A DNA stretch of 64,000 nt from assembly GCA_964255285.1 (NCBI GenBank), contig CAXUUL010000005.1, positions 1 to 64,000 of the forward strand. Reading direction: 5' to 3'. Source of the stretch: Ionaspis alba. Taxonomy: Eukaryota. The first letter of the stretch is position 1; each line of letters begins with the position of its first letter. Below the pieces are notes generated by a model. It did not search any database and was not told the DNA's origin. It saw only the letters and a program-made list of their open reading frames with translations. Both the position numbers and the translations under genes were made by a program. This document shows, piece by piece, positions 9,311-12,031 of the stretch.

Positions 9311-12031
9311 ATGGAGACAAGTTCTGCTGGCAATCAGGTAGACGCGTCGAGGGACCCTCGTCGAAGGTCACGTGTTACAAGCGCACCTCTCACTCAGATT
9401 GCCAACGAAGGCAATACAACCTCGCCGGCTTCGATCTCCAAGCCAATTGACAAGAAAGCTTTGCGGAAGAATGCGAAGGAAAACAAACAGCCTCCTTCGC
9501 CGAGATTCCCAGAAAGCAGGCAGAGCGGTGAAAAGAAGAGAAATGAATCATCTCTAACAGATCCAGTCGAGAGTACTGCAGTTAAGGTGAACAATAAGGA
9601 CTCGGCTCCCCTCCAGCCAGTACCTGAACGCTCTTTGGGCCTTCCAGATACGCCTGAGCACAATCAGCATAACGTAGAGGGGAGCGCGACGTCCATTCAT
9701 CCTAGCACTCCGCAGCATAGTAGGAATACTACTACGTATCACAATCGATCGCAAAAAGCTCAGAGATCTGGCCCACTCTCCAACAGTCCCTTTTCTTCCG
9801 GAAACGCACTATCACCAAGCACAACGCGCAGTGCTACCGAAATCGTAGCGTTTACAGCCAAAATACCTGTCGTCACGCACGCATCGCCCTCGAGAAAAGG
9901 CCCGCCACCTCCTGTGGTTGTGACAACTCCCTCTAGGACCGCACGCAGGCAGGTGAAATCCGATCTCTCTCAGATTATGTGGGAGAATGAAAGGGGGGCA
10001 ACCTACGACTGGGTCCGAGGGGAGGGAATCGTCCGTATCGAAGATAATGTGGTGCCGCAGACTCCGACGGAGCCTTTCAAGTCCCCACTGGATATCCCAG
10101 ACCAAGTCTTCTTTGCTAAGACTTACATGGACAATGGCCAGCTCATTCATAACAGGGAAATGAGATGGAGTCAAGGATTCGATGGCTTCAACATTCTTCT
10201 GGATGAGGGTGAAGTCTTTTCAATCCACGCTGTCGCTATTTCCAGCGTCTCCTACGACATAAACATCGGTAAATTCTTCCTGTACCCTAATGCCACCGCC
10301 CCTGCCGAATTTAAGCTCGACGAAGCACTCCTAGAAGTAGGTGGTGATGACCAATCCCCCTGGATGCTACGAGTCATTTTTGAACGGCGACTTGGAGCCA
10401 CTAAGGTGAATATGGCTGACAGGTCAGTAAACCGAATTTGAGCTGGAAGCGAATTACTGATTACTTCCAGCGCCTTCTTTATTCAGAAGGAGAAGGCATT
10501 GACGCAGTTCCGACAGAGATCTTTTTCAACTCGAGTGGCGCTTACCAGAGATAGTGTCCAGGGACTTTCTGATGGGATGAAACAAAACGAAATGGTCGAC
10601 AGGGTATCAATTCTTTCTGTAGCTGAAGCAGTATCAGTACCATTTTCCGATGCTGTGGATGAAGGAGATGGACGAGATTCGAGGGAATCAACGATAGCCG
10701 CCTCTCGAGTGGCAAAGGATGACCACCCCGCCACTGATGAGACGCCACTACCTGGCCTGAGTTCTTCGCCGGATACGATACGCGTCCACCACCCCAAATT
10801 TCGAACGGTCGAGGTTCGAAAGCGTCGCAATGACAATGTCGAAGAATCTATATCGCCCTCTGACCCAATGAAGACTTCGAGCACGACATCACGGCTTCCG
10901 CGACGTCTAGATCGTTTGTTTCGGGACAAAGGAAATACAATAGCAACGCCCAAGAAAGTGGACAAGGAGCAAGGCACAAAGGCTACAAGGTCACGCGTTC
11001 GTGGCGGAAAGCTTAGTGAAGTACCATTGCCCGTCGTTGATGAGGTAGAAGCGACTGCTGTGGTAGGAACTGTTGACGTACTGCCCAACGACACGACACC
11101 CGGTTCTCCGTCCTCTCCGGTCGATGACGATCCTCGTAATCGGCGAGATGAAAGATTGGATGACAGCAAAGCGCTCTACTACCGTTCTGGCGAACGAGTG
11201 AAACTTCATGATCTAGTAATTCGCATCCGCGACCCTGCCAGTATTGAAGGAGGGAAGAACAAATTCGACACGCTTGATGTCTATGACGGTCCGTTCCTCA
11301 TCCGCGAGCTCCCACCATGCGTCACTGTAGGCGCTGTCTTTAGTGACGATGATGAAGCCGGAAGAACGCGCGCCCCAAAATTCGCTGACAAGCCGGACAA
11401 GAATGTCGTTATTGCCATGCAGGAAAAACTGGTCAAACTCCAGTTCCCGGCAGACTCGAAAGTAGAACCTTGGACCAGGCTCGGCCGTCTTCGTCCCATC
11501 TACGATATCCATCCTGATGTGCCGGAAGACGCAAGTGCTCGGAACTCTTACTACTATGGTAAAGGGATCGAGGGGTCGCGGTCTCCTCTCAACAAAGGTA
11601 AGAAACATGAGAGCTCAGATCAGAGTGGAGTCTGCAGGATTCAGAAAGGTGCATATGTTAAAGTACAGTACGTTGCGGCAGAAGGACCCAACGGTGATGA
11701 TCAATTCGAAGTCGAGAAACTTCGATATAAGCGCATCGATCGTTGCGATCTTGCTGAATATCCTGACGAGAAGATGACCGATCCGGCCATCGTGCGTTAC
11801 CTCGAAGGAGGGGGTTCGGTGGATGAATCTGAGGTCCTTGTGACACGATACCTTGTGCACTGGGCTGGTTGGCCGTCCGAAGACGATACTTACGAAAGGG
11901 CGCAGGACAACATTCCGCAGGAGTTCATTGATAAATACGTTCAGAGTGTGGGCGACGCGGTGGAGGTCCCGGAAGGTCCAGCGAAGAAGAAGCGTAGGGT
12001 TTCTGGCGCACGTAAGTCAAGCCAGACTTGA
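9311..12031 (+). CDS. Chromodomain-containing protein (~890 aa) with a retrotransposon-integrase-like GPY/F (SH3) module and a C-terminal NLS
   Basis: ORFs 9257-10441 and 10499-12031 are joined in frame by intron 10423-10470 (GTCAGT...ACTGAT...CAG). Chromodomain motifs FEVEKL and YLVHWAGWPSEDDTYE; NLS PAKKKRRV. The start codon is a best guess. Confidence 0.75.

Follow-up and report, generated by a model that had tools for sequence, protein, structure and literature searches.

We find that a stretch of 64,000 nucleotides from Ionaspis alba (positions 1 to 64,000 of contig CAXUUL010000005.1, assembly GCA_964255285.1; hereafter the window) contains a two-exon host gene whose product comprises a PH-like domain, a linker, a reader module made up of an SH3-like barrel and a chromodomain, and a putative nuclear localisation signal (NLS), and that the C-terminal module of this protein was, on balance, probably derived from the tail of a chromovirus integrase. 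We consider integrase-tail ancestry the best explanation because moderate, reproducible profile-profile evidence coincides with a matching domain architecture, even though the module has no match to the corresponding family model. The gene product is likely to be a nuclear reader. Together with its relatives it defines an uncharacterised family of chromatin proteins in lichen fungi, Geoglossomycetes, Leotiomycetes and Xylonomycetes, with a PH-like domain and linker ahead of barrel, chromodomain and NLS.

An earlier, sequence-only reading of this DNA had listed a series of motifs resembling the GPY/F-SH3 module and chromodomain with which chromovirus integrases end, and all of these fall, in the order it gave, within one stop-free stretch of 259 amino acids (window 11171-11947, + strand), in a frame that is open from 10442 to 12031. 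For comparison, a chromoviral sample was drawn from natural Ty3/gypsy integrase fragments in IMG/VR and metagenomes, fetched by a conserved core motif; an uninterrupted downstream frame of at least 190 residues was present at 23 of 124 loci, whereas at the remaining loci a stop or the sequence end intervened. These 23 tails carry an SH3 segment, as expected, and 21 of them a chromodomain segment. Aligned with hhalign, the profile of 69 family barrels matches that of the 23 chromoviral SH3 segments with a score of 28.4 (P 4.5e-5, Prob 68.8%) over 65 columns, at template positions 4-68 of 71 and in exactly the register that the sequence-only reading had proposed, such that the motifs GD-V, GP[FYW]-[IV], L-x-[LF]-P and L-P coincide. 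Reversed controls score 12.1 and 12.3, and among 200 column shuffles (mean 10.9, standard deviation 2.3, maximum 21.5) none reaches the real score. The match recurs in one shared register in five subset tests (P 8e-6 to 1.8e-4), whether the family side is limited to close (1.8e-4), distant (9.3e-6) or compact members (8e-6, the best), or the chromoviral side is divided into halves (1.2e-4 and 3.4e-5). Comparison of the whole module with the whole tail yields a single colinear alignment (score 109.4, E 3.7e-17) of 134 columns, covering template positions 4-139 of 141, in which the family's barrel loop, the connector with its hairpin, and the chromodomain insertion are all handled as insertions. 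The profile-profile match supports homology between the barrel and the integrase SH3 domain without proving it. As a lead only, the language-model neighbours of residues 1-180 (a region that excludes the chromodomain) are Chromo and SH3_Tf2-1 clusters, at 0.86-0.90.

The predicted structure of the barrel is compatible with this ancestry. In an AlphaFold2 (AF2) model of the C-terminal 293 residues, built from a 33-row alignment (mean predicted local distance difference test score, pLDDT, 76.5), the barrel comprises five strands, a helix and a conserved hairpin follow it, and the chromodomain carries an additional, inserted helix. The barrel contains a DGPF motif in which G-P is invariant (the codon for F646 lies at 11294), and a variable loop of about 36 residues (11315-11422) splits it. 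Its matches in VIA are SH3-like folds at Z 4.2-5.0, namely KOW, BAH, Tudor/Agenet and SAWADEE domains and the C-terminal domain (CTD) of murine leukaemia virus integrase (MLV IN); the latter superposes at Z 4.3 with a root-mean-square deviation (rmsd) of 4.2 Å over 62 residues, and the BAH domains of AIPP3, ORC1, Rsc2 and EBS at Z 4.7-5.0 with rmsd 3.7-5.8 Å. Since these are generic SH3-like folds, the barrel fits an integrase tail, yet is not specific to one. A primary label of BAH or Tudor was rejected for want of profile support, there being no Pfam match to BAH, Tudor or KOW at E ≤ 10 in 33 + 15 members. Foldseek searches with the C-terminal model listed only chromodomains in the PDB, none of them at E ≤ 0.001 (best 0.13), and nothing meaningful in BFVD. 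Of the structural check suggested by the sequence-only reading, modelling gave an SH3-like barrel, and Foldseek chromodomains alone, weakly. Between barrel and chromodomain, the beta-hairpin of the connector (11621-11677) is 68% identical among relatives and lacks any equivalent in chromoviral tails; it might add to the chromodomain sheet or fill the peptide groove of that domain.

The chromodomain announced by the sequence-only reading is confirmed, with a score above the Pfam cut-off in the Ionaspis protein (Table 1) and Pfam Chromo matches in 32 of 33 aligned members. Its predicted topology is a sheet of three strands (model residues 187-200, 228-239 and 246-250) against which a C-terminal helix (257-267) packs; strands 1 and 2 are separated by an insertion of 32 residues (11738-11833). 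The model superposes on the dHP1 chromodomain (6mha) at VIA Z 6.1, with rmsd 1.8 Å over 53 residues, and on many other chromodomains, including those of Oxpecker, Chp1 and Polycomb, at Z 5-6; a phmmer search of the region spanning the motifs against the PDB gave weak chromodomain matches only (best E 0.013). Three residues, F783 (11705), W835 (11861) and W838 (11870), fill the aligned aromatic columns, which we take from HP1 structures to be the cage-forming ones, and these positions are aromatic throughout the family. Judged from sequence, the three would form a complete aromatic cage binding methylated histone lysine. The family chromodomain aligns with chromoviral chromodomains at hhalign E 4.8e-16. 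When one family hidden Markov model (HMM) was scored on both host chromodomains from the PDB and the 23 chromoviral tails, the former gave 20.4 (CDYL), 17.0 (Polycomb), 16.0 (CBX7), 15.7 (LHP1) and 13.1 bits (HP1), and the best three of the latter 20.4, 20.3 and 15.5 bits, with the other 20 of 23 at or below 11.8. The sequence-only reading had held that a chromodomain grouping with host types would tell against it; in this comparison of scores, host and chromoviral chromodomains come out alike.

The module belongs to a conserved protein family. The pattern goes beyond chance, for the 260-residue module was found in 33 proteins at E ≤ 0.001 (best non-self match 3.7e-118), and the named matches to exon 2 are all annotated as 'hypothetical protein' in lichen-forming fungi (Xylographa, Trapelia, Lambiella and Circinaria). 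A HMMER profile of the part preceding the chromodomain (alignment A3), run on 1.84 billion cluster representatives, matched 61 proteins, in most of which a Chromo domain lies just downstream of the profiled region. Further named members come from Candelina, Pycnora, Trichoglossum (Geoglossomycetes), Pseudogymnoascus (Leotiomycetes) and Xylona (Xylonomycetes), such that the relatives span five classes of Pezizomycotina, the only group in which named representatives occur. Among 28 relatives, identity is 61-78% in the structural elements and 18-21% in the linker and loop, a pattern expected under purifying selection on the domains, and one that, at the level of sequence comparison, contradicts the strain specificity and neutral evolution that, with lack of transcription, the sequence-only reading had named as fatal to its proposal. 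Long forms of the family share the N-terminal region and PH-like domain encoded by exon 1, followed by a linker that can hardly be aligned and then by the C-terminal module.

Variation in length around this common plan is considerable. Four compact relatives (P0062, P0076, P0073 and P0079, two of them from Trichoglossum) have neither the loop in the barrel nor the insertion in the chromodomain, and in spacing they almost equal chromoviral tails; P0076, P0073 and P0079 are partial or short. By eye, the two Trichoglossum proteins, P0062 and P0076 (the latter a partial record), have no N-terminal domain before the module, which is free of insertions, and P0062 has a long disordered tail after it. 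Other relatives are much longer, including P0051 from Pycnora (1374 residues), P0046 and P0047 (about 1280 residues) and P0058 (1623 residues). A Mago-bind (Pym-like) motif near the N-terminus of P0051 scores 28.4 bits, and may reflect either a genuine fusion or two genes merged in annotation.

With regard to the gene itself (Table 1), the sole in-frame stop between its two open reading frames (ORFs) is a TGA at 10439-10441, inside the predicted intron, and the spliced product aligns without gaps over the junction to all five annotated orthologues tried. Sequence and orthologue junctions thus support the spliceosomal intron of the sequence-only reading, and its PAKKKRRV string is likewise present. 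This basic cluster is a probable NLS, and relatives possess a K/R-rich cluster at the equivalent place (consensus KRRK). The linker is probably disordered. Opposite it lies an antisense ORF of 230 residues (10483-11175, - strand), probably a by-product of linker composition.

The surroundings of the gene are those of a host locus. It sits, as the sequence-only reading had noted, between SUV3 and a Prp22-type helicase, beyond which follow Npa1, Eap1, NDH2, a tubulin chaperone D homologue, sulfite reductase and a SNF2-RING protein. A Pfam scan of the gene returned Chromo only, with no rve, Integrase_H2C2 or RVT, and neither the gene nor any of the 14 long ORFs that were scanned gave a Pfam match to a reverse transcriptase (RT), RNase H or integrase core. 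Nor does the locus contain gag, protease, RT, RNase H and integrase core flanked by long terminal repeats (LTRs), direct repeats being absent at lengths of at least 30 nucleotides in 8200-12900 and of at least 60 nucleotides in 1-30000. These scans and repeat searches agree with the sequence-only reading, which had reported neither retroelement parts nor LTRs. GC content of the gene is similar to that of its flanks, with no AT-rich decay. Given the absence of RT, RNase H, integrase core and direct repeats, the flank-like GC content and the housekeeping neighbours, the locus is not a transposon; its neighbours, the lack of element parts, the five-class spread and the domain-biased identity bear out the host-like gene of the sequence-only reading, and we hold with high confidence that it is a conserved host gene. 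A pseudogene reading was rejected, the frame being intact and conserved, with conservation biased to the domains. Elsewhere in the window, two long ORFs on the + strand, at 31936-34392 (818 residues) and 53981-56317 (778 residues), have no Pfam match at E ≤ 1e-5.

Table 1 Coordinates in the window of the gene, its parts and its immediate neighbours
Feature	Position	Strand	Basis and details
Two-exon gene	9311-12031	+	spliced product 890 amino acids; intron predicted
Exon 1	9311-10422	+	ATG at 9311; 370 codons + 2 nucleotides; open frame and translation
PH-like domain	10088-10420	+	residues 46-156 of AF2 model of 9953-10420
Predicted spliceosomal intron	10423-10470	+	48 nucleotides, GTCAGT...CCAG (GT-AG), CTGAT branch-like site
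Exon 2	10471-12031	+	stop codon 12029-12031
Linker	10471-11173	+	poorly conserved; mean pairwise identity 21% among 28 relatives; barely alignable
SH3-like barrel	11174-11503	+	AF2 strands 21-26, 45-53, 94-97, 108-110, 114-116; candidate integrase GPY/F-SH3 homologue
Connector	11504-11677	+	about 58 residues; AF2 helix 130-141, strands 158-165 and 168-174
Chromodomain	11702-11953	+	Pfam PF00385 Chromo, 31.6 bits against a cut-off of 25.1
PAKKKRRV basic cluster	11978-12001	+	sequence; putative NLS
SUV3 domains	5711-8211	+	upstream of the gene
DEAH/S1/HA2/OB helicase, Prp22 type	12840-16382	-	downstream of the gene

The N-terminus is confidently predicted to adopt a PH-like fold. In the AF2 model of this region (mean pLDDT 82.8, about 95 in the core), a seven-stranded sandwich (strands 51-130) is capped by a C-terminal helix (135-147). 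VIA comparisons reach Z 9.8, with 38 chains at Z of at least 8, and among the matches listed all are of the PH superfold. The best Foldseek match is the PH domain of REC114 (E 4.5e-4), followed by those of SSRP1/Pob3 and Spt16. Pfam offers no family match for the domain, and ESM Atlas no usable one.

Several results weigh against integrase-tail ancestry, and they bear above all on the possibility that the protein is a host-born reader, in which a generic SH3-fold domain (Tudor/KOW/BAH-like) stands beside an ordinary host chromodomain and the likeness to integrases reflects convergence among small barrels, an account we regard as rather unlikely. The Pfam model SH3_Tf2-1 (PF24626) recognises both of two real chromoviral tails used as a positive control (53.8 and 47.8 bits), yet matches none of 79 distinct family proteins (scanned in sets of 33, 31 and 15, with 15 of the 79 rescanned at E ≤ 10). 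The A3 profile drew no retroelement from the 1.84 billion proteins and had no match among PDB sequences at E ≤ 10, and none of its 61 relatives has a Pfam match to RVT, rve, Integrase_H2C2 or SH3_Tf2-1. Residues 1-175 of the compact relative P0079, searched among longer proteins, gave 535 candidates and none at E ≤ 10. A chromoviral SH3 HMM scores family members weakly (best 6.9 bits), with the weak matches keeping the proposed register and reversed decoys staying at or below 0.7 bits in scattered positions; hhalign comparisons of A3 with single chromoviral tails are weak (P 0.042) or absent, and hhalign probabilities are moderate, at 48-84% across tests. The 23 tails were chosen by one exact motif plus an intact frame. 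In structure, BAH, KOW, Tudor/Agenet and SAWADEE domains score equal to or above the sole integrase CTD listed, while HMMER places the chromodomain no nearer to chromoviral than to CDY/Polycomb host chromodomains (scores being equal with CDYL, Polycomb and CBX), and the hairpin and insertions are without chromoviral counterpart. The integrase GPY/F-SH3 identity advanced by the sequence-only reading is partly supported, by the profile-profile match and the SH3-like fold, and not by Pfam or the profile search; of the family models that it had suggested as a check, the chromodomain one matches and SH3_Tf2-1 does not. The similarity to integrase SH3 whose absence it had declared decisive was nevertheless found, both by hhalign and in the predicted fold. 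Against convergence stand the match over the whole SH3 domain in one register, its recurrence in five subsets and in no shuffle, and a domain order as in chromoviral tails, with the spacing agreeing too once lineage-specific insertions are removed. BAH, Tudor and KOW are moreover without any Pfam match, even at a permissive threshold, and we know of no host chromodomain family with a GPY/F-type barrel directly upstream, which we also count against convergence. Neither in the gene nor in any of the 61 relatives is the barrel directly C-terminal to an rve (DDE) core, as expected if only the tail was captured.

Colinear similarity alone gives no direction, and chromoviruses might conversely have taken their SH3-chromodomain tail from an ancestor of the host family. 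We find this highly improbable. Ty3/gypsy integrases in general, and some retroviral ones, possess the GPY/F module, and SH3_Tf2-1 occurs on integrases with or without a following chromodomain, in elements from many sources, whereas the host family is narrow, with 61 representatives and the named ones in Pezizomycotina only. We give just as little credence to a decayed retrotransposon fragment or chimeric mis-annotation without a functional gene: the confinement of retroelement likeness to the tail-like part would suit such a fragment, but the 890-residue frame is intact around a canonical intron, repeats, other element parts and AT-rich decay are all missing, and the architecture is conserved across fungal classes with strongly domain-biased identity.

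Under integrase-tail ancestry, the non-catalytic tail of a chromovirus (Ty3/gypsy) integrase, comprising GPY/F-SH3 and chromodomain, would have been captured by a host, probably before the divergence of the Leotiomyceta classes, and subsequently remodelled by the addition of an SH3 loop, the connector hairpin and the chromodomain insertion. The chromodomain cage would bind a methylated histone lysine, for which the analogy of chromoviral and HP1-class chromodomains makes methylated lysine 9 of histone H3 the default guess, and the SH3-like barrel may contribute contacts to DNA or nucleosomes. Barrel and chromodomain together could then tether the PH-like domain, of the FACT/Rtt106/REC114 kind, to marked chromatin as a delivered cargo. 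In chromoviruses, the chromodomain has been linked to heterochromatin targeting (Gao et al. 2008, as cited in PMC4437310 and PMC3248453).

A more specific version of this scenario, which we regard as quite unlikely, holds that a tail-only exaptation in an early Leotiomyceta ancestor produced a transposon-derived heterochromatin adaptor, serving either for FACT/REC114-like delivery by the PH domain or as a decoy at the landing sites or SH3 contacts of chromovirus integrases. Were the decoy version true, the gene would represent a retroelement-derived brake on retroelement integration.

Side by side with these scenarios we place some observations on sequences that recall one side of the comparison or the other. 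A contig fragment from IMG/VR (L002, 3-2858, + strand) contains an apparently intact RT-RNaseH-integrase-SH3-chromodomain frame of 952 residues, in which the chromodomain reads W-A-G-Y instead of the usual W-K-G-Y and a basic tail stands at the end, both of which recall the fungal host family. In one of 15 family proteins scanned (P0066), residues 7-17, which include the GPF motif, match the start of Pfam Integrase_p58_C below its threshold (14.5 bits against a cut-off of 27, E 0.038), which we do not count as evidence.

Host genes derived from integrases in vertebrates keep the integrase core, whereas the fungal gene would retain nothing of the integrase but its non-catalytic targeting tail. 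The vertebrate genes GIN1/GIN2, NYNRIN/CGIN1, KRBA2 and SCAND3, given as integrase-derived domesticated genes in PMC3670739, are otherwise similar to it, being single-copy host genes thought to come from Ty3/gypsy or retroviral integrases. According to the same source, which does not mention fungi, host genes are known to derive from retroelement gag, protease and whole integrases, mostly in vertebrates. In the accessible portions of the full-text literature we found no report of a host gene made from an SH3-chromodomain tail only, nor of a fungal case, which does not prove that none has been published.

Among host readers, those of the HP1, Polycomb and CDY types share with the fungal protein the chromodomain fold (Z 5-6.1), the three aromatic positions and HMMER scores equal to those of chromoviral chromodomains. 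Unlike them, the fungal protein has neither a chromoshadow nor any other partner domain of HP1, Polycomb or CDY proteins, and carries instead a GPF barrel upstream of the chromodomain, whose strands 1 and 2 are separated by an insertion. The PH domains of FACT (SSRP1/Pob3 and Spt16), Rtt106 and REC114 resemble its N-terminal domain in fold (Foldseek E 4.5e-4 to 2e-3, VIA Z 8.1-8.9), but the likeness ends at the fold, identity is 6-15%, and many cytoplasmic PH domains score equally.

The closest comparison is with the chromovirus integrase tail itself. The host gene differs in having no zinc-binding domain, DDE core, RT/RNase H, gag or LTRs, and no Pfam SH3_Tf2-1 score anywhere in its family, and further in its barrel loop of about 36 residues, its connector of about 58 residues with a hairpin and its 32-residue chromodomain insertion, as well as in the fusion of the module to a PH-like domain within a gene that has an intron. 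It agrees with the chromoviral tail in the succession of an SH3-like barrel and a chromodomain, in a 134-column colinear alignment with GD-V, GP[FYW] and L-x-[LF]-P in register, and in the basic tail with which many copies on both sides end. If the proposed ancestry is true, a host can turn the very device by which a transposon selects its sites into a chromatin reader, and the fungal protein provides a small, naturally occurring module with which heterochromatin recognition by chromoviral tails can be tested.

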